From: Scenedesmus sp. PABB004
Lineage: Eukaryota
Direction of reading: 5' to 3'
DNA: 64,000 nt
NCBI GenBank assembly: GCA_014905635.1
Contig: JABVCE010000005.1
Location: 682,001 to 746,000, forward strand
Shown: positions 6,494-58,400 of the stretch, piece by piece
How the letters are laid out: each line of letters opens with the position of its first letter
Position numbering within the stretch: position 1 is the first letter of the stretch
The notes under the pieces: model-generated
What the model was told of the DNA's origin: nothing
The model's input: the letters and a program-made list of their open reading frames with translations, nothing else
The model's database searches: none
Translations under genes and position numbers: made by a program

Positions 6494-6800
6494 CGCGCCG
6501 GGCGGGCTGTACACTACTCCGCTTGGGCCAAGCGGTGTGCTGCTTGGCGTGTGCTCGTGTGCGTGAGCCGGAAGTGTGGGTGCGGCGTTGGGCGCGGCGC
6601 GGCTGCGGCTTTGTCGCGGCCGCGCAGGTGTGAGGAAGGCGCGCGGGCTTGACAAACCGCGCGCCCGGGCCCCCTTTAGGCAGCCGCGCTCGCTGTCACG
6701 CTCCACAGAGAGACTTGAACGAGGGCGTGCGCGCCAAGCACAGCGCTCGGACACCCGGTCACAGCAGCATCGACTCACCCGCCGCCAGTGCCACCCCCGA

Positions 6801-7393
6801 TGATGGCCCTGGCGATGCAGCGGCAGCGGTCCGCGAGCGGCCACACCTGGCTCGCAGCGCTGTGGCGCTCACTGTCGGCACCCAGCCTCCTGCGGCGCTG
6901 CGGCTGCTCCAGCCTGCTGGCACGGCTCGTCGCGCCGCAGCCGGCGGCCCCGCCCGCGCCCAGCAGCCTGCTGTGGCCCGGCGCCAGCACGGCGGCGCGT
7001 CAGCGGCGGCGCGCTGCGCCGCCGCCGCACGCGTTTGCTCCGAGCCTTCGCGAGTGCAAGTGCGGGCGGGCGTGCCTGCGCGCGGTCCTGACGCAGCAGG
7101 TCGGGTCTGTCGACCGCTACAAGATGCTCGAGCTGGCCGAGCGGCTGCACGAGGAGGGCCTGCGCCAGCTTGAGACGACGGCAAGCGTCGAGGCGTGCGC
7201 CACGGCCAGCGGCGCCGCGGCCGAGCCCGCGTGGGACGACGACTTTGGGAAGCTGACGCAGAGCTTTGCGGCGCGCGCGCGCCAGCGCATCTTCTGGACG
7301 CACGGCGAGCTCGCGCGCCTGGCACGCCAGGCGACGGGCGGCGCGGAGCTGGAGCCCGCGGCGGCGGCGGCGGCGGCGGCGCCGGCGTGCTGA
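6801..7393 (+). CDS. Hypothetical protein
   Basis: Single ORF with coding-like core CLRAVLTQQVGSVDRYKMLELAERLHEEGLRQLE...FGKLTQSFAARARQRIFWTHGELARL. Confidence 0.55.
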
Positions 7394-8828
7394 GAGAGAG
7401 TTCTGCGAGCGCGCGGGGAGCGTGCGCGAGCAGCCGAGTCGGTTGCGAGTTGGGGCGCGAGCCGGGGCCGGGGCAGCGCCGGCACTGCTGCCAGCAATAA
7501 TCCGCGGACCGCAGGCGCGCCGCAAGGCGCGCTGCGCGCGGCTGTACTCTCTGATCCTCCTCCCCTTTTCCGCTGTATTCTGGTTGCTGATCTCTTGTTG
7601 CTTTGGCCTGGCGTGCCGACCATCTGTCGACCGTCGCTGGCCGCGGCTTGCAACACAGCCCAATATCCGTGACCGTCGACGCCGCAGCCCGCGCTGCAGC
7701 CAGCTCGCCAGCCGCAAATCGCAGCCCCATTGGCGCCTAGGCGCCGCCCGGTGCCGGTGCAGCTCTGCGCCGCGTGGCGGCCAGCCCGCGCTTGGTCCAG
7801 CCCGCCAGTGCCGCACGAGCGAGCTGTTGTGCTAGGCTGCGCCTGCCTCGGGCAGGCCAGACCGCGGCGCCGGGCGCCGCCCCGGCGGCCTGCAGCCCGT
7901 GGGCGCCCTCTTGCGTGCGCGCGCAGAGCGGCTGGGAAGCCTGCGCCGGGGGGCTGCAGCTGCCCATGGGCAGCCGGCGCTGGCCAGCGCCGGCTCGGGC
8001 TGCGACTGTCGTGGCGGCGAGGTCAAGCAGGGCGGCAACGGCGGCCGGGGGCGGGACCGGGGGATGCGGCGGCGGCCGAACCAATCGGTTCGCGAGCGGG
8101 CGCGGTGACGCGCGGCCGGAGCTGCAGCTCCGGCCCACACCAGCTGGTGTGGGCCGCGCCGCACGAGATCGACGGCCGGCCCGTCACGCGCAGCGGCGCG
8201 CGCGCGCGGTGTGGTCAAGGCGGCCAGGTCAACCGCAGCATTTTGCACCGTGATCTAAGCGCGCCGACATGGGTTGCGCGGCAGAAGCCCCGTGAATCAG
8301 TTTGACGCCCCGCTGGTCGCCGTCAGGGGTGAGCGCCGAGGCCGGAGCATCACACACCGCGGCAGGGCAAAACGTTTGGCAGGGCAGACCTCGTACTCAG
8401 AGGCAGGGCAGAGCTGTTGGGCGAACCCACAACTCTTGTGCGTGCGCAGGCAGTTCAGGGTGAGTGGTCACGCTGTCAACAAAGCGGTGCTCAGCCGGGA
8501 GCACAGTGTTGGTGTCGGAAGCACAGTGTGGTCTCCGGCTGCGCGTCAGCCACCTCCATGCGATGTTTTGGCCGCCTCACGCACCGGAAACCAACCATGA
8601 AACCAACCATGAAATGAACCCAGGCAAGGCCAGCAGCAGCCGCCTTGCTGCGTGTTAATCGCCGTTAATCGCCGTGTTAATCGCCCGCTGCTGCCGGTGA
8701 CGGCGTCAGCTGCAGGGGCGCGCATGTGTGCGTTGCGTTGATATCTCCGTGTCCATGCACATGCACAGCTGCCCGCCACGTTTGAGGGCTGGCAGTGAAC
8801 TGTCAAGAGGGGGGGCGCGACCTCGCTT

Positions 8829-11800
8829 TCAGATGGTCTCCTCCGGGAAGCCCTCTTCGAAGATCAACCCGAGGCCAGCGGCGAGGTGCCAGTCGATGTG
8901 GCTGAGGGCGTGAGCGCGCGGGGCGGGGCGGGGCGTGCGCGCGCGGGGCGGGGCGTGAGCGCGCGGGGCTGCGCGCGGCCGAGGCGGCGCGGCGCGTCGC
9001 GAGCTCCCGCCGGGGCGGGCGGGCGCACCAGTGGAAGATCTGCATGCCAGGGTTGTTGGCGATGTAGCGCAGCACGATGAAGCTCTTGCGCGCGACCGTC
9101 ACCTGCGGGCGGCACACGTGGCATGCCGCACGGCGGCGGTCAGCGCGCGCGCGACGGGGCGAGGGCAGCGCAGCGCGGCGGCGCGGCGGCGCGGCGCAGC
9201 GCGCGCCGTGTCGCGGACGATGCCGGGCACGAGCTTGATGTCGGAGGGCGCCTCGCCCGCGTCGGGCGCGCCGAAGCTCATAACGGTGAACCAGTGACCG
9301 TGCAGGTGGAGCGGATGCTCGCCCGTGTCGCGGTTGACGATGTAGATGTCGATTACCTCGCCGCGCTTGACCGGCACGGTGTGGAAGCCGAGCCCGCCGG
9401 GCGGGACGGCCGGGTTGGACGGCGGGCCGATGCCGAGCGGGTTGTTGGAGTAGCGCTCGAGCAGGCTGGGCACCTCGGGCTTGAGCGAGAGCGCGATCTG
9501 ATTGAAGTGCGCGTACCTGCGAGCGCGCGGGGGTCGTGTGCTTGCGCGGCGCGCGGGGGTCGTGTGCTTGCGCGGGGCGCGCGCGCGCGCCCGGCGGCGC
9601 GCGGCGCCGCGGCCGCGGCGGACGCGGCGCGCACTGCGTCGCGTTGGTGGCGTTGCGGGGCTCGTTGTAAAAGTCGATGACCTGCTCGAGGCGCCGCGTC
9701 GCGTCGGGCGGCGTGGGATTGCCGAGCGGGCGCAGGGAGTAGGGGTTGATTACGCCCGGCCCCGGCGGCGCCGAGGGCGTGAGCTTGGGCGGGAGGTACG
9801 TCGCGTTGGTGGTCGGCAGGGTCGTCGGCGGCGTGTCGGTGAAGTAGAGGACGCCGAGGGACTGGTTCCACGCGCTGCCGCGGCGGCGCGGCGCAACCGG
9901 GCAGGGTGGGCCGCGGCGGGGCGTGGCGTGAGGCGCGGCGCGTGAGCCAGGCTTGCGGCGGAGCGCGTGGGGCTTGCGGCAACGGCGTGCGTGGCGGCGG
10001 GGTGCGTGGCGGCGGGGTGCGTGGCGGCGGGGTGCGTGGCGGCGCACCTGTCTGACTGGAAGTCGCGGTCGAGCATGACCGCCCGAATCCACACCGGCTC
10101 CATGCTCAGCGGCGCGCCCGCCGACTGGCAGGGCAGCACGTCGTAGCGCTGCCCGCTGCGCGGGCGCGCGCGCGGGCGCGGCGCCGCCGGCGTGAGCGGC
10201 GCCGCGCCGCGGGAGCTGCGCTGCGCTGCGCTGCACAGCGCTGCGCTGCGCTGCGCCGCGCTGCGCTGCACAGCGCGGAGGGGCGCGGCAGGGCGCGCGC
10301 GCTCACTTGTTAATCTGCAGCGACCCGACCTCCACGGGGTCGACCTCGACGCCGTCCTCCGCAATGACCAGCATCCTGGGGTTTAGGGTTTGGCAGGTTG
10401 GCGGCAGGGTGGCGGGCAGGCAGGCGGGCACGCAGGCGGGTCGGCCGGCGGGCGGGGTTTGGGGGCGGTTTAGTCTAGGAGGTCGTGCGGCCGGCCGCGC
10501 GCGCACCTGTGGGCGTCGATGGAGACGTTGAAGACGGCAAAGCTGCCGGCGTTGACCAGGCGCAGCCGGGTCTTGGGCGAGGCGCACGACGACGCGATCG
10601 CGCGCGTGTAGGAGTAGCCGCACCCCGTGGCGCCGCCGGCCTCGCACGCGCCCTGCGCCCCGCCGCGCGGCGGCGTGGGCGGCGGCGGCGGCGGCCGCGG
10701 CGGCGGGCGCGGCGGCGGCGGCGGCGGCGCGGGGTGCGCCCGCGCGGCGTCGGCGGCGGCAGCGCGCGCGCCTGGCCGACGCCGTTGAGCAGCGCGGTGT
10801 AGGGCGTGGGCTCGTTGCCGCCCGAGGCGGGGCTCAGGTAGTAACGGGTCAGCTCCGCGGCCGGCTCGTGGTACCTGCGCAGGCGGGGCGCGGGGCGCGC
10901 GGGGCGCGCGTGTGACGCGCCGGCCCCCGCAGGCCGCGCGCGCCTGCGCACGGGCGCGCGCTGCGCCGCAGGCCGCGCGCGCGCGGCGCAGCGCTGGCGG
11001 CGTGGGCGCGGGCGGGCGCACCAGTCGTTCATCGTGACCACCGCGTCGACCTCAAACTGGGGGCGCGTGGGGTCGAGGATGACGAGCGCGCCCCACAGCC
11101 CGTCCACGTACTGCGTGCTGTAGTGGCTGTGCCACCTGCGGCGCGGCGCGCGCGCGCACGCGGCGGCGGCGGCGTGCGTCACGGCGGCGGCCCACGCACG
11201 CCGCCGCGGCCCGGGCGCGCAGTGGCGCGTGTGCGCGCGGCCGCACCAGAAGGTTCCGGCCGTGTATGCGATGAAGTTGTATGTGAACGTCTCGCCCGGC
11301 TGCACGGGGCGCTGCGTGCCGGTGGACACGCCGTCCATGATGTTAGTGTCGAGCTGCAGCATGCCGTGCCAGTGGATGGTCAGCGCCTCGCGCGGCTCGG
11401 TGAGGCCATTGAGGACGGTGATGATGATGCGGTCGCCGACGTTGGCCGCGAGCGTGACAAAGGGCGCCCCGTTGACGACCGTCACCTGGCGGCGCCGCGG
11501 CGGGGGCGCGGCGCGCGGCGGCGCGTGAGCGGCGGCGCGTGAGCGGCGGCGGCGTGGAGCGGCCGGAGCGCCGCCTGGCCGCCGCGCCCGCGCCGGCCTG
11601 ACAGCCCCCGCGCCGGGCCGTCGCGTGCGCGCCGGCCGGCCGCGCCCGCGCGGTGGCGGCGCACCGGGCGCGTGAAGCCATCGGGCGCGAGGGCGCGGCG
11701 CGTGATGAGCCAGTTGTGCCTGACCGTGCGCGTCGTGTGCACGCCCTTGCGGCAGCGCCGCGAGCCAGGGCTGCAGGACGACCGGCACGAGGCGCTGCCG

Positions 11801-41614: not shown

Positions 41615-41962
41615 TCGCCGCGCCGCCGGCTCGCACGCCGCCGAGCTCCTCCGGACCACCAGAAGGTGACAGGGGTGGGTGCGGGGGCCCTGTAATAACC
41701 GGTCGCCCGGGGGGGCCGCCGCGCGCGGGGAGGGGGGGGGGCGGCGCCGGCGGCCGTTGCGTCACCGGCTGCGTGCTGTCAGTTCCAAAATGGAACGCCC
41801 CCGGACGCGCGGTGGTCGCGCTGGCGGCCGCGCCGTCTCGTGCAGTTGCAGCGCCACACCAGCACGCTCAAGCGCGACCGGGCGCCCCCGCGGCAGCGCG
41901 CTTTCGACCATACGCCCAGCTGCGCGCCGCCTCACTCGCCGCGCCGCGCACGGTGCCGCGGG

Positions 41963-51980: not shown

Positions 51981-52926
51981 GTCGTTGTTGTTGGTTACGG
52001 CGGCGCCCGGTACGCTCCGGGCGGTTGAGCGTCCCACATCGGAACGCCTGGCGGGCCAAACCAACTCCCAAATGCGACCAACCGAGCAGCCCGCAAGCGG
52101 GGCCGCATGCTGGCAAGCCGGCGCAGGGCATGTAGCGAGCATGGCGCGGCCCAGACGCGCGCAACCCACCAGCAAAACCACCTGCATGCCGCCCTCTGGT
52201 CTTGATCGCGCGCCGGACCGTGGCACAAGGCAGAAGGCCCGCTGCGAGGACCAACCCCCGCGCGCCCCCGCCCCGCCGCCGCCCCCCGCGACCGACGCCC
52301 CCTTCTCCCCCCACCCCGGCCGCACGCACGCCCAGCCCGGCGGTGCCCCGGGACTCCACATACACCGGCCTACAGAACTGGCAGCGGGGCCGCACCAAAC
52401 ACACACGCCCGCACACACCCAAAGAGCCTCATGCACCGGCCTGCAGCCAGATGCGCGGCGCCGCCCGTGGGTCGGCGTCGTCCGGCACGGTGCAGAGGAA
52501 GGGGTGCTGCGCAGGGACCTGCGCAGACCACTGTCGCGGGGCCGCACGGCACGCAACAAAGTCCGCCAGCCAGGCCCAGAACGACGCCACCGCCGCTTGC
52601 TGGGCCTGCTGCAGCCGCTGCGCGCGCTCGCTCTCGGCCGCCGCCGCTTGTCGCTGCTGCTGCGCCTCGGGGGGAGGCGCAGCGGGCAGCATGCTGGAGA
52701 TGAGGCGCTGGCCCGCAGCCGCGGCGCGCTCAGCACGCCGGGCATGCGCGGCCGCCCGCGCTTGGCCTGGAGGGCCGCGAGGTTGGCGGCGCGCCGGCCG
52801 GTGTCCATGGCCGCGATCGCGGCCAGACACACCACGCGCCACACGCCCGAGTGCATCCGGGGCCCGGTACGCTCCGGGCGGTTGAGCGTCCCACATCGGA
52901 ACGCCTGGCGGGCCTGACCAACTCCC
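51981..52926 (-). mobile_element. 5'-truncated non-LTR retrotransposon remnant (L1/Tx1-like ORF2 C-terminus, 3' UTR, (CAA)n tail) with duplicated 3' end
   Basis: Minus-strand peptide VWRVVCLAAIAAMDTGRR...AVASFWAWLADFVA...HPFL resembles VWDMVCIAAIHACERGRR...AVSAFWEALADFAA...QPFL at 55285-55520. Ends in a hairpin plus GTAAC-CAACAACAAC. 65-bp direct repeat at 52005-52069 and 52862-52926. Confidence 0.75.
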
Positions 52927-53119
52927 TCCCCGCCACCGCACGTGTCTGGAGCTGTGGCACCAAAAACGGAGCTGCGGCACCAAAAACACGTTTGGTTCCG
53001 ACATTTTTGCGTAACAAAACAATCAATAAAATATTATTTTACAATTATCCGGCATTAAAAACGCATATTTGACATTTGCCTATTATATGCAGCATAATTG
53101 CGCCAAATTCGTTGGATGA

Positions 53120-53193
53120 ACCCATGTAGCTCAATCGGATAGAGCGGTTGACTTCTAATCAACAGGTCGCGGGATCGAGGCCCGCCATGGGTG
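53120..53193 (+). tRNA. trnR: tRNA-Arg(UCU), intronless
   Basis: Acceptor ACCCATG/CATGGGT+G, D arm GCTC...GAGC, anticodon arm GTTGA-CTTCTAA-TCAAC, T arm GCGGG-ATCGAGG-CCCGC. AT-rich/TATA-like upstream region and TTTT terminator at 53201-53204. Confidence 0.93.
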
Positions 53194-53230
53194 CGGAGTA
53201 TTTTGGCACGATTTCCAGCCATTTTGCCTT

Positions 53231-55858
53231 ACCTGTTTGTGGGGCAGGCGCTCCTGTGCCACCTCCGTGCGTGTGGGGTAGGGCTGGCTGCAGCGGGCAC
53301 CCAGGTGGTGGCGGCGCAGTACGCGGATGACGCGGAGCCGTTCATCACCTCGCTGCAGGGCGTCCCCCACTTTTGCGGGTGCATGAATGACTTTGCAGCG
53401 GCGTCGGGGCAACGCCTCAACCTCACCAAAACCAAGCTGCTGCCCATTGGGCTGCAGGCGGCGGCGGCGGGGAGCGGCGGCCAGCCCCAGGCGGTGCACG
53501 GCATGCCCGTCGTGCACACTGCTGCAGCGTTGGGGATTGTGTTTGACGGTCGGGGCGGCAGCGACGCTGATTGGGAGACGCGTATGACACACGTGCGGCG
53601 CGCGCTGCGGCGTGTGTCGATGCTCCCGCGCATGTCGTCGTTTGGCCGCGCCTTTGCGGCCAACGCGTACGCGCTGGCCACGGTGCTCTACGCGGGCCAG
53701 TTTGGGGGTGGCTTGACGGAGCAGCATCTCACTGACATCCTAAAGTGGTGCGGAGGGCTGGTGGACGCAGGGTTGGACCCTGAGGGCGACCTGCGCCGCC
53801 CGCCCGGCATCCCCAAGGCATGCATGGCTGCGCATCCGAGGGAGGGAGGCATGGGGCTGCTGCCGGTGCGCGAACACCTGCATGCGCGCTGGGCGATGGA
53901 GGGCGCGGAGCTCATCACGGGGCAGGGGGCCGCGGGTGCAGTGCCCTGGGCGGCGGTGTGTGGGGAACTTTGGCGCGTGTGGGCAGATCGCGTGCGCCCC
54001 GATGCGGGCGCGTGCGGAGACACGGTGTGGGGATTAATGTTGTGCGACAAACGCCTTCTTTTTGACAGCGGGCGCCAGCGGCTGCCGCAGCCCCTGCGCT
54101 CGTTCGCGCTCGGGCTGCGCGCGCTGCCGCCGCTGGAGTGGCTGGGGCCGGGCGAGTATGACTGGCGGGCCCACAGCTGGGATGCCCCCCTGTGGGGCAA
54201 CCCGCTGCTCACGGTGCGGCAGCAGTGGCGCTGGCCGGCCCAGCCGGGGGAGGAGTGTGTGCGTGATGTGGCAGTGGGCTTGGAATGTGTGGCGGCCCCG
54301 GGCTTGCGCGGGCTGCCCTGCCTGCAGACGGTGGGCCAGGCGGTCACGCTGCTGGCCGTTATTGAATCGGATCGGTTGACTCCGCCTCGTTGGGGCCTTG
54401 GGTTGGCGGAACACATGAATTACCTGGCTGCAGTCTGGGTGCCATGCCTGGCTTCCCGGCAGTGTTACCATGCAGGTAGGCAGCGTGCACTCGATGACGT
54501 GCGCGCGCTGGTTGACAGGCTGCCGCCATCCTGGGTGGCGGCGGCGCGAGCTCGGCTGGCGGCGGCGGCGCGCGCGGGCCAGCCCGTGAGCGCCCCGGCG
54601 CCGGTACAGCCAGCAGCGTTGGCGGCGGCGCGTGCGGCGCGTGCGGCGATTGCGGTTGGCCTGGGCTGGCCGCTTGTGGGTCGGCCGGTGCAGCCTGGTT
54701 GCCGGCCGGGGATACGGCTGGGGCAGCTCACGGTGGCGCTGGCCACGCGGCTGCAGGCGCTGCCGGCGCGCGCGGAGCTGCATGCCCGCCACCACCGCCA
54801 CTGTCTGACGGTTTCTGAGTTTGATGGTTTGCAGCACATTGGAGGTGATGAGCTTGCGATGCGCACGCGCCACGCCACGGTGTGCCAAGCCCTGGCGCGC
54901 TGGTGGCAGCTCAAGGTGCCCAACACGTACAAGGAGGCGGCCTGGCGGCTCACGCTGCAGGCCTTTCCGACTGCCAGCCGCATGCAGCCGGGGCCGGGCA
55001 TGGTGGACTATTGTGTCTACTGCTGCCCAGGGCCGCCGGAGGCGCCGGAGCCAGCGGAGGCGTCCGGACTGGGCGGCGCGCTGCACCCGAGCGAGGCGCA
55101 CCATTTCTGGCGGTGCCCGGTGGCAGGCGAGGTGTGGGGTGAGATCGAGAAGCAGCTGGCTGCTTTTTTTTTTTTGTGTAACTATCTTTATCTTTATCTT
55201 TTTTTGACTGGTGGCCGGACGGCGCGCGCTTGCACTGCAGGCACATCTGGCTGGGGTGCCGGCCTCGGGAGCAGCTATCCCAGATGGTCTGGGACATGGT
55301 CTGCATCGCTGCAATTCACGCGTGCGAACGCGGCCGGCGCGTGGCCTGGATTTTCCTGCAAGTGCGGGAGCGTGCCTTGCCCTTTGACGTGGCCCGAGAC
55401 ATAGTCAGGCGGGCGGCAGTGAGTGCGTTTTGGGAGGCGCTGGCCGACTTTGCGGCGACCGCTTACGTGCCCCGCGCTGCCCGTACGCCCGACCTGACGG
55501 GCCAGCCCTTTCTGGCTTGGTGCACTCCCCGCGTCGCGGGGAGTGGCTTGGTTGTTATTCGGCGATGAGGATGGTGGCATTCTCCCAGCACTCCCGCGCG
55601 CGCGGGTTGCGCGCTCGCGGGCACGCGCGACCCGCGGTCACCGGCTGCCGCCGACACTGAAATACTGCTACTGCCCAGCAGCGAGCGATCGGTCAAGGTG
55701 TGTGCGCGGAGACAGCACTGAGTGTGTGCAGGTGACGCTTTTGGGCGTGAGCGTGGCCACGGGCGGCAGCTGCGCGTGAGTGACTGACTATACCAAAGTG
55801 ATGGGGTCCGTGTTTGCGCCGTAGGCGCTTGTTCACCCCTGGTAACGCCCTTCTTTTT
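53231..55858 (+). mobile_element. 5'-truncated L1/Tx1-like non-LTR retrotransposon (C-terminal RT, zf-RVT-like CCHC region, 3' UTR, (TTC)n tail)
   Basis: YLFVGQALL, QYADDA, FAAASGQRLNLTKTKLLPIG, LGI, HPREGGMGL, WWQLKVPNTYKEAAWRL, CVYC...HHFWRCPVA. ORF ends at 55568 and is interrupted by a short insertion near 55165-55205. Confidence 0.92.
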
Positions 55859-55871
55859 GCCATTTTGCCTT

Positions 55872-56374
55872 TGACGCTTCAACCGTCAGGGATGGTGGCA
55901 TTCTCCCAGCACTCCCGCGCGCGCGGGTTGCGCGCTCGCGGGCACGCGCGACCCGCGGTCACCGGCTGCCGCCGACACAGAAATACTGCTACTGCCCAGC
56001 AGCGAGCGATCGGTCAAGGTGTGTGCGCGGAGACAGCACTGAGTGTGTGCAGGTGACGCTTTTGGGCGTGAGCGTGGCCACGGGCGGCAGCTGCGCGTGA
56101 GTGACTGACTATACCAAAGTGATGGGGTCCGTGTTTGCGCCGTAGGCGCTTGTTCACCCCTGGTAACGCCCTTCTTCTTCTTCCATTTTGCCTTGGGCGG
56201 CAGCTGCGCGTGAGTGACTGACTATACCAAAGTGATGGGGTCCGTGTTTGCGCCGTAGGCGCTTGTTCACCCCTGGTAACGCCCTTCTTCTCCGCCATTT
56301 TGCCTTTGACGCTTCAACCGTCAGGGTCCCGGCGCCGTAGGCGCATGATTCACCCTGTGTAACTCCCTTCTTCT
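55872..56374 (+). mobile_element. Three further head-to-tail 3'-end copies of the same element (55872-56182, 56195-56293, 56307-56374)
   Basis: Near-identical 3' UTR sequence ending GCGCCGTAGGCGC...GTAACGCCC(TTC)n, each followed by (G)CCATTTTGCCTT. The last copy is diverged. Confidence 0.88.
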
Positions 56375-56556
56375 GCCATTTTGCCTTCCACGGAGGTGCC
56401 GGGGGTGTCTGGGGTGCCTGGCTGTCACCTGGGGGGGCCGCCGGGGCGGGCCAGCGAGCAGCGCGCGCTGGCGGCCTCAGCCGCGCCGATCGGGCGGTGG
56501 CGCTGAACTGGAATGGAAAACCTTTGCCCCTGCCCCCTCCCGCCCCGCGCCCCGCC

Positions 56557-56766: not shown

Positions 56767-57231
56767 CTGCGTGCGGCTGGTGTTGAGATGGCGGCTAGCG
56801 GCAGCCAGGAGCTGGAGGCTGGAGCTGGCGGCGGCGGCAGCGGCAGCGTCAGCGACCCCGGCGTCGTGGCTAGCGCGGCGGCCCCTCGGGCTGCTGACGC
56901 AGGCGCGGCGGTCAGCATCAGCGATAGCGGCGTCACGGCTGATACGGCGGCCCCTCGGGCTGATGATGTCAGCGCGGCGGTCAGCGTCAGCAGCGTCTCT
57001 GCTGGTGCGGCGGCCCCTCGGGCTGCCGTTACCGGCGCGGCGAGTCGGTGTGCAGCACTGGAGCAGGCTCGGCGTTATTTGCTTGGTGACCTGCTGCAGG
57101 ATCAGCTTGCTGTTCACTCTGTGGCAGATTATGTGATGGACATCTGGAAGATGCGGGACACCGTCCTTAAGGGGCGCGGGACCAATGGGCGCGAGCCTGT
57201 GGTGTAACTATCTTTATCTTTATCTTTATCT
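56767..57231 (+). mobile_element. Probable 5'-truncated LINE of another family (RTE/RTEX-like?) with (TATCTT)n tail; left boundary approximate
   Basis: Lower-GC ORF end LEQARRYLLGDLLQDQLAVHSVADYVMDIWKMRDTVLKGRGTNGREPVV* running into GTGTAAC(TATCTT)4. The same tail recurs at 55176-55200. Confidence 0.6.
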
Positions 57232-58400
57232 TGCCGCGGCGCTGCCCCGCGCCCGCCCCGCGCGCAGCGAGCGCAGCGCCCAAGAGCAAGGTCACCACGC
57301 GCGCGCTGCTGCTGGCCGCCCCGCCTCCCTCGACCCGCCGGCACCCCGGGGTCAGCAGCTGCTGACGGCGCCTGCAGGCGCCGCCTAGGCGTCGCTCGTG
57401 CCGGCTCGTGCCGGCGTCGCCGCCTTGGCCTCGGGCCCGCGCGGGCGGCCGACGTCGGCCGCGGGGTCATCGCTGTCGTCATCGCCGTCGTCTTGGCGGT
57501 CGTCGTGGGCGTAAGCGGCGTCAGCGGCGTCGGCGTCGTCGCAGAGAGCCGGTTTGACTGTGGTCGATCTGCTCCTGCTGCGGGTCCGCGGCCGCGGCGG
57601 GGGCTGGCGACCCCTCGCCGGCCGCCTGGGCCGGCAGGGGCGGCCCCGCCTCCATGGGAGGCGCGGCGCGGCGCGGCGCGCGTGCGGCGCTGCGCGGCGC
57701 GGCGCGACGCAGCCGCGGCGCTTGCTGCCCGGCGCCCTGAACGTGGCGCGGGGCGTGGGCGTGGGCCAGGGGCCCGGGCGGGGCCAGGGGCGGTCTGTCG
57801 CAGAGCGGGGAAGCCTCTAGGGGGAGGGGCAGGCGGCGGCGGGCTTGGAACGACCGTCGCGTTGACCGCGACCGCGGCTCCGCCTCCACCACGCCGGGCA
57901 GCCCAGCTGCTCTGCGGCAGCCCGTCGCGCGCGCGAGGCGCGTGGCCGCCGGGGCCCTGCCGCGGCGCCGCAGCAGCGGCACCGCTGCCACGTGGCTCGC
58001 TCAAGCGGTCGGGACGGGACGGCGGCTCTGCGCTATGCGGCCGGTGGTACGGAGTATTTTGCCGCCCCCCAGACCGCACAACGGCCCTCCCGAGCCGCCA
58101 GGCGCCTCGCCGGGCGCCGCCGGGCGCCGCCGGGCGCCGCCGGGGCGGGCAGCGCGCCCCAGGGCACGGCGGCCTGAACCACGCTGCGCCGCTCTCACAG
58201 CGGTGGCCCCCATTCCGATCAGCACTGGGCGGGGCACCGCGCGCCGCAGCCCGCGCCCGCAGCCGAGCGCGCAGGGGGGGCGCGCGAGCAGCAGAGCAGC
58301 GGCGGCGTGCTGCGCCCGGCGCGGCCCGCAGCGCTCGCGCGGCGCCGCGTGCGACGGCCAGGCGCAGCAGCCCGTCCCGCCGCCCCGCACCGCGGCGCCC

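Follow-up and report, generated by a model that had tools for sequence, protein, structure and literature searches.

In a 64-kb window of the Scenedesmus sp. PABB004 genome (64,000 nt of contig JABVCE010000005.1, forward strand; positions are those of the window unless another contig is named), one insertion site behind a tRNA-Arg gene was used repeatedly by four cut-short copies of a long interspersed nuclear element (LINE), here called E1 to E4. The array probably arose by at least four separate events of target-primed reverse transcription (TPRT), carried out by two subfamilies (A and B) of one L1-like LINE of the apurinic/apyrimidinic endonuclease (APE) type, with the same bottom-strand nick each time. 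The copies lie between occurrences of a 12-nt motif, CCATTTTGCCTT, which is a target-site duplication that was regenerated repeatedly and is not borne by the element.

Four truncated copies enclosed by five identical motifs

The motif has five exact copies in the window (M1 to M5), all on the + strand and starting at 53219, 55860, 56183, 56295 and 56376. The chance expectation is 0.03 matches, and none of 100 dinucleotide-preserving shuffles reached five. A first-pass annotation of the window, made from its letters, had listed these five motifs with an optional G in front; the motifs proved exact, and the preceding base is G in four of the five copies and T at 56183. Its description of the enclosed elements was confirmed by the sequence: E1 to E4 are co-oriented copies of one element, each with a different 5' end, and the variable pyrimidine tail of each directly abuts the motif (CTTCTTTTTG in E1, CTTCTTCTTCTT in E2, CTTCTTCTCCG in E3 and CTTCTTCTG in E4). 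Microhomology at the 5' joints is 0–2 nt. The first motif with its preceding G (GCCATTTTGCCTT) begins 25 nt past the discriminator base of the tRNA at 53193, as had been annotated and as ARAGORN, Rfam (65.9 bits) and the sequence support; this is beyond the TTTT run, which from general knowledge of Pol III (RNA polymerase III) we take to be the terminator.

E1 runs from inside the reverse transcriptase (RT) domain (..LFVGQALLC..QYADD..) through a CCHC region to a TGA stop at 55566-55568 and a 291-nt 3' untranslated region (3'UTR) that includes the tail. E2 is cut at the first base of the 3'UTR, with its 5' limit ambiguous by 2–3 nt because of GG microhomology; it matches the E1 3'UTR at 289 of 293 aligned positions and departs from it by one substitution and in the tail. 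The coordinates are collected in Table 1.

Table 1. Positions of the array components and of the tRNA gene in front of them
Feature	Position	Strand	Basis or remark
tRNA-Arg (anticodon TCT) gene	53120..53193	+	ARAGORN 53120-53194; Rfam RF00005, 65.9 bits, 53120-53193
TTTT run, 8 nt past the tRNA, probably Pol III terminator	53201..53204	+	Sequence
M1, native copy of the 12-nt target, upstream duplication of E1	53219..53230	+	Native tRNA flank precedes, no element tail
E1, 5'-truncated subfamily-A copy, 2629 nt	53231..55859	+	Open reading frame; alignment A1 with ~1400-aa relatives
38-nt T-rich insertion disrupting the E1 reading frame	55164..55201	+	Missing from other copies
Upstream copy of the 33-nt duplicate: G, M2 (55860-55871), first 18 nt of E4, GG	55859..55891	+	
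E2, subfamily-A copy, 293 nt (311 nt if the preceding 18 nt are counted)	55890..56182	+	Identity to E1 3'UTR
M3, duplication copy between E2 and E3	56183..56194	+	No preceding G
E3, subfamily-A copy, 100 nt	56195..56294	+	Same as E1/E2 3' ends except tail
M4, duplication copy	56295..56306	+	Start of the downstream copy of the 33-nt duplicate
E4, subfamily-B copy, 69 nt	56307..56375	+	~86% identity to subfamily A
M5, last duplication copy	56376..56387	+	Followed by native flank CCACGGAGG

The motif as a regenerated target-site duplication

Copies inserted elsewhere were found in Logan contigs from four freshwater-metagenome runs. Contig 27 of run X8 equals 55497-55855 without a difference and then continues into CGATTTTTGGTGCCC... 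instead of the motif. Contig 13 of run X3 (527 nt) equals 56309-56374 of E4, also with 0 differences, has a longer CTT tail than E4 and then runs into GGGCCCGACCC..., which is not the motif either. Thus neither of the two copies elsewhere with a readable 3' flank, a very small sample, continues into CCATTTTGCCTT, and one of them has a similar core, CGATTTTTGG. Both 30-nt foreign flanks are absent from the window. Because the tails of these two copies run into different flanks, the motif is not carried by the element. In addition, M1 stands in the native tRNA flank, ahead of a copy that is truncated in the middle of the RT.

The first-pass annotation had interpreted the array as TPRT products with a regenerated duplication, and would have taken the motif for part of the element had it followed the tail everywhere without an upstream twin. 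The foreign flanks of the two other copies speak against an element-borne motif, and, together with M1 in its native flank and a 33-nt duplicate described below, they uphold the TPRT interpretation. The hallmarks of TPRT are present in the form of the 12-nt and 33-nt duplications and the four 5' ends. Since the four copies have different 5' ends and tails and joints with only 0–2 nt of microhomology, they point to independent TPRT events and not to segmental duplication. Neither recombination between 12-nt repeats nor one template-jumping event fits this pattern.

Order of the insertions

The segment 55859-55891 recurs at 56294-56326 with 33 of 33 nt identical, and the identity ends on both sides. 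It includes the 18 nt that follow M2, TGACGCTTCAACCGTCAG, which at first look like filler and are the first 18 nt of E4. The match of X3 contig 13 to E4 begins at 56309, within these 18 nt, and the contig sequence upstream resembles the subfamily-A 3'UTR. In the simplest reading, the 33-nt duplicate would be a long target-site duplication made by the insertion of E2. As this duplication includes the start of E4, E4 must already have been in place when E2 inserted. E3 separates the E2 tail from the duplicate's downstream copy and is therefore later than E2. The order of insertion is therefore reconstructed as E4, E2 and E3, and E1 is unconstrained and may have been the first or the last.

E4 had been annotated as the most diverged copy and the one farthest from the tRNA. 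By the 33-nt duplication it is earlier than E2 and E3, but its ~86% identity reflects a second subfamily, B, and not decay or age, as the contig match with 0 differences indicates.

The element and its relatives

A search for longer proteins with E1 returned 27 relatives, the best of which are ~1400 aa long, 43–46% identical, and have Exo_endo_phos and RVT_1 domains. A Pfam scan of two of them, protein P0002 and the second open reading frame (ORF2) of locus L002, found both domains in each; in these relatives, at 45–49% identity, the PF03372 matches have E values of 3.3e-10 (P0002) and 1.1e-09 (L002 ORF2). The truncation of E1 lies downstream of the endonuclease region, and the endonuclease is typed on full-length relatives only. 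E1 holds the C-terminal part of the RT, its QYADD aligns to an invariant column of alignment A1, and the relatives carry PF00078. The columns of a C..C..H..C pattern are also invariant in A1 (C594, C597, H623 and C628); the corresponding zf-RVT match is weak and below the Pfam cutoff (E 0.031 for E1, 2.5e-4 for P0002). The full-length relatives L001 and L002 have an extra upstream ORF of 637–665 aa without a Pfam match. Among solved structures, P0002 matches human LINE-1 ORF2p (8sxt_A) best, with an E value of 4e-41 over endonuclease and RT, compared with 7e-13 for R2. The family thus appears closest to L1 in a comparison that took in solved structures only, so that the L1 side of the annotated "L1/Tx1-like" assignment stood, with the APE type added from the full-length relatives. 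On these protein comparisons we classify it as a new family of APE-type, two-ORF, L1-like LINEs.

Longer copies exist somewhere, since protein P0028, 98% identical to E1, includes part of the RT that E1 has lost by truncation. Element coding sequence (..RQGCPLAPLL), and not the motif, also lies upstream of position 53230 in a metagenome contig whose match to E1 begins there. Contigs from runs X1 (1110 nt) and X3 (830 nt) contain the joint 55163→55202, skipping the 38-nt insertion in E1, and the insertion is therefore private to E1. Of this insertion, 26 nt (GTGTAACTATCTTTATCTTTATCTTT) are identical to 57202-57227, 2 kb downstream. Both 55164-55201 and 57202-57231 hold the GTGTAAC 3' box of the family followed by (ATCTTT)n, and the insertion target within E1 is a TTTT. 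A third subfamily may have left the two segments as tail-only copies, or they may stem from a templated repair insertion.

The 3' end is conserved in the family. A GT(G)TAAC box is located ~10 nt before the 3' end in all relatives, and GCGCCGTAGGCGC is invariant in the closer ones (alignment A2). Behind the conserved end CTTCTTTTG, L001 and L009 have an A-rich run that is missing from the window copies. A relative at 45% protein identity (L001 6496-6714; L009 5170-5250) keeps the 3' end GCGCCGTAGGCGC..TGTAAC..CTTCTTTTG and adds an A-rich tail. For a 3' stem-loop, single-sequence folds were no better than shuffles (z -0.5 to -1.9), and the GCGCCGTAGGCGC hairpin does not vary among the 4 sequences compared, which leaves no covariation and makes the result one of conservation only.

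The loci of the relatives number nine: seven metagenome contigs, all from distant relatives, and two genome contigs inside one metagenome-assembled genome (MAG). No second copy of the L009 3'UTR was found in the MAG with the two genome loci, and viral contigs gave no element match by protein search or by 3'UTR pattern. L008 and L009 are eukaryote-type LINE contigs binned in a cyanobacterium-titled MAG, which is probably bin contamination.

Proposed mechanism of site re-use

In the mechanism that we propose, the first nick would always fall at the left boundary of CCATTTTGCCTT, 25 nt past the tRNA-Arg gene. Each event would duplicate the 12 nt between staggered nicks, and the site would be rebuilt for the next event. 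For E2, the second nick would have fallen ~20 nt further, giving the 33-nt duplication that takes in the start of the resident E4. The site would be re-used since the element machinery prefers such a junction; the preferred feature could be a T-run-containing sequence, which is rare at 78% G+C, or the junction behind an existing copy as in the arrays of the green-algal LINE Zepp. Directed targeting of tRNA genes would be unnecessary to account for the locus.

Two lines of evidence bear on what is preferred. Upstream of the nick, the E1 event had native flank (..TTTCCAG) and the E3 event the tail of E2, so the downstream motif is the sole sequence common to both events; this speaks for a preference for that motif or for its T-run core. 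Against this, with E1 as the founder the motif would be simply the duplication that E1 made, and the later events would have occurred at the junction behind an existing tail. The other line is stacking in relatives. A second copy lies directly behind the first in four of the seven places with a readable 3' end and flank, namely the window, L001, L002 and X3 contig 13. In L001, 6496-6558 is repeated at 6652-6714, with the second, truncated copy 27 nt behind CTTCTTTTG (the A-rich run and ~11 nt). L002 has three copies with a (TAAG)n tail (6991-7198, 7202-7409 and 8071-8168), and X3 contig 13 holds two subfamily-B 3' ends. The 5' flanks of the L001 and L002 stacks lie outside these contigs. No stack was seen at L009 (159 nt of flank), L005 (~95 nt; 3' end inferred from the conserved box) or X8 contig 27 (30 nt visible). 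Because relatives stack at unrelated sequences, stacking looks like a Zepp-like habit of the family and not a property of the tRNA flank.

Several points weigh against this account. What bears on insertion preference is a single locus in the window, two metagenome contigs and a set of distant relatives. The four metagenome runs gave no contig across the array or any junction of motif and element that would confirm the assembly independently. Contig 8 of run X3 covers the tRNA and its flank only to 53226. No contig joins 53230 to 56388 as an empty site would, and none crosses the array, which speaks neither for nor against. As the age of E1 is free, later events could follow an existing tail, as in Zepp, or the motif itself. 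One other copy stands at a similar core (CGATTTTTGG vs CCATTTTGCC), leaving room for real sequence specificity, and the stack of one relative lies beside a 5S rRNA gene, leaving room for a Pol III link.

Alternative explanations

Real sequence specificity is the substance of a less probable explanation, to which we give a definite but minor chance. The endonuclease or ribonucleoprotein (RNP) would recognise CCATTTTGCCTT or the core C-S-ATTTT-G and nick its left edge, as in Tx1-, R1- and NeSL-type elements, and the tRNA gene would be incidental or the supplier of the sequence. Such an element would agree with one nick being used by two subfamilies and with the motif downstream of the nick being the only sequence that the E1 and E3 events have in common, in whatever order they occurred; if E1 was the founder, however, the motif would be whatever E1 duplicated and specificity would be superfluous. 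Another subfamily-A copy has a flank with a similar core, CGATTTTTGGTGCC, whereas the GGGCCCGACCC flank of the other subfamily-B copy is unlike the motif. In the window itself, two partial motif matches, CCATTTTGG at 41786 (minus) and ATTTTGCC at 58056, are empty, and the stacks of the relatives are at unrelated junctions. The annotated target-site specificity in the Tx1/R1 sense was not sustained, with none of the two other readable copies in the motif, though one has the similar core CGATTTTTGG.

Two further explanations, in which the array would not record separate insertions, are both very improbable. In one, the motif would be part of the RNA by 3' transduction or read-through, and the array would come from a single template-jumping event or from unequal recombination between motifs. 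Template jumping by LINE reverse transcriptases is known, and this ability, like the identity of the five motifs, is compatible with such an origin. The same transduced 12 nt would nevertheless be needed in both subfamilies, although other copies lack the motif after the tail, and the 33-nt duplicate takes in a part of E4 that a jump would not copy. The 12-nt repeat is too short for recombination, which would not yield four 5' ends and tails. In the other, repeats would have been mis-joined during assembly. No independent contig crosses the array, bins 55948-56201 are uncovered in the four runs, and the repeats fit two places; however, an artefactual expansion repeats identical units, whereas all junctions and tails differ here, and the internal logic of the 33-nt duplication would be hard to obtain by mis-assembly.

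Targeting directed by Pol III is unlikely, although better placed than these two. An RNP tethered to TFIIIB/TFIIIC, or reading terminator-proximal DNA, would gather copies downstream of Pol III genes as in Dictyostelium TRE3. The sole LINE insertions of the family in the 64 kb are indeed 25 nt behind the sole real tRNA gene, past the terminator and with the gene spared. The count of tRNA-linked loci for this element is one, and the window contains 53 native runs of at least 4 A or T outside the array, of which eight are within 150 bp of the tRNA, so that a T-run-preferring element would land there in ~15% of cases by chance. With a single locus and T-runs concentrated in this way near the tRNA (8/53), the annotated tRNA association was not borne out. 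The relatives give one case in favor: in L002, a 5S rRNA gene (7713-7831; Rfam, 110 bits) has stacked copies on either side, with 302 nt separating it from the copy before and 239 nt from the copy after. This adjacency is suggestive and a single case. The third L002 copy has no extension toward the 5S gene beyond 8071, and tRNA genes were found at none of the nine loci of relatives. The 30-nt flanks of the two other copies are also without tRNA, though they are too short to judge. In PMC5006619, an element counts as tRNA-targeted when several of its copies are similarly spaced from tRNA genes, and TRE3 lies 14–305 bp from its tRNA genes (Table 1 therein). For E3, the nick hit the same motif base although at least 350 nt lay between it and the tRNA, whereas tethered TRE3 scatters over that range (PMC5006619).

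A bolder version of this idea, which we likewise consider improbable, is that a LINE lineage of very GC-rich freshwater algae is directed to terminator-proximal Pol III flanks (tRNA, and 5S in the relative), re-nicks at the edge of its own duplication and builds mini Zepp-like stacks at safe sites. If true, it would be the first non-LTR (non-long-terminal-repeat) retrotransposon known to target Pol III genes in the green lineage, and might represent a stage that precedes centromeric Zepp clusters. No tRNA-targeted LINE of green algae was among the full-text literature matches listed, and the word "tRNA" is absent from the main text of PMC8226300 and PMC11005252.

Comparison with known elements

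The LINE reconstructed here as having inserted repeatedly by TPRT shares with human LINE-1 its 5' truncation, target-site duplications and 5'-junction microhomology. Human L1 has a poly(A) end, and because the loose TTTT/AA consensus that it nicks occurs genome-wide, exact re-use of a site is rare. For the Tx1 group, Kojima and Fujiwara in 2004 reportedly described Keno, Mutsu, Dewa, Koshi and Kibi with Tx1, with targets that are said to include Pol III genes and tRNA arrays. Like the window element, these are APE LINEs that join the target precisely at the 3' end, carry microsatellite or other non-poly(A) tails and use one target repeatedly; in contrast, Tx1-group copies occupy the same target genome-wide, and both of the other readable copies here are in other sequences. 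Tx1 is target-specific and is placed within the L1 group (PMC3747384).

Zepp and ZeppL (Chlorella/Coccomyxa and Chlamydomonas) are APE-type L1-clade elements with head-to-tail arrays of mostly 5'-truncated 3' ends (PMC8226300; PMC3446292), and Zepp clusters form when new copies nest within resident ones, which leaves 3' ends in tandem arrays (PMC8226300). The head-to-tail stacks of 3' ends in the window, L001, L002 and X3 contig 13 are like these in arrangement. Zepp clusters are 1.5–42 kb long and lie at putative centromeres, one per chromosome, whereas this array is 3.2 kb long and lies in a gene-rich region behind a tRNA; unlike Zepp, it has an intact 12-nt duplication between all copies. 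Zepp has a poly(A) end (PMC3747384, Table 3 footnote), and the window copies have a short (CTT)n-G and no poly(A). Among 15 families of green-algal L1-clade LINEs, the ends are (A)n in 2, other repeats in 8 and none in 5 (PMC3747384, Table 3), so non-poly(A) tails were already known in this group. With Dictyostelium TRE3, the element has in common an ORF2 with APE, RT and zinc finger, two ORFs and a harmless insertion downstream of a tRNA gene (PMC5006619). TRE3 differs in its variable positions (14–305 bp), its poly(A) end and the many copies that share such a position and for which it is called tRNA-targeted (PMC5006619); the window element has a single locus, no poly(A) and a site precise to one nucleotide.

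Genomic setting

The window is 78% G+C overall, and the 2-kb bins from 52001 to 56000, which contain the tRNA and most of the array, are 68%. Islands below 50% G+C are only ~15 in the whole window and short, and two of them flank the tRNA-Arg gene, which is itself located in an AT-rich island, a rarity in this window. The tRNA-Arg(TCT) is a genuine gene. Another ARAGORN prediction, a tRNA-Leu at 10174-10270, was rejected as a false positive in a GCTGCG-rich repeat without an Rfam match. We also rejected a short interspersed nuclear element (SINE) with tRNA head and LINE tail as one unit, given the full-scoring tRNA gene, its own terminator and the AT-rich sequence in front of it; upstream of the gene the motif has a single look-alike, ACATTTGCCT at 53071, 38 nt before the tRNA start. 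Pfam searches of the window gave ordinary host genes only (HemN_C, MFS_1_like, adh_short and Aa_trans).

Just upstream of the AT-rich island of the tRNA, a tandem 20-mer, AGCTG[T/C]GGCACCAAAAAC, is present at 52949-52990. Contigs from two metagenome runs diverge from the window at 52948, near this repeat, and strains therefore differ structurally there. Its reverse complement, TTTTTGGTGCC, is also found in the flank of another element copy in run X8. At 10380-10395, GGGTTTAGGGTTTGG represents two interstitial plant-type telomere repeat units.

Implications

In summary, the locus shows known behavior, namely TPRT and Zepp-like stacking, with unusually clean re-use of a site by a well-documented but ordinary kind of element. 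Its value lies in a record of TPRT in nature that can be read with unusual clarity, comprising four events, two subfamilies, one first-strand nick, a variable second nick and a 33-nt duplication that dates their order. The locus points to a way in which Zepp-type LINE stacks may start, with a regenerated duplication being used again. If the Pol III link were general, green algae would join the yeasts and dictyostelids, in which tRNA-gene targeting is already known. A retrotransposon may persist in a gene-dense genome of 78% G+C by means of a few permissive T-run sites beside a Pol III gene.

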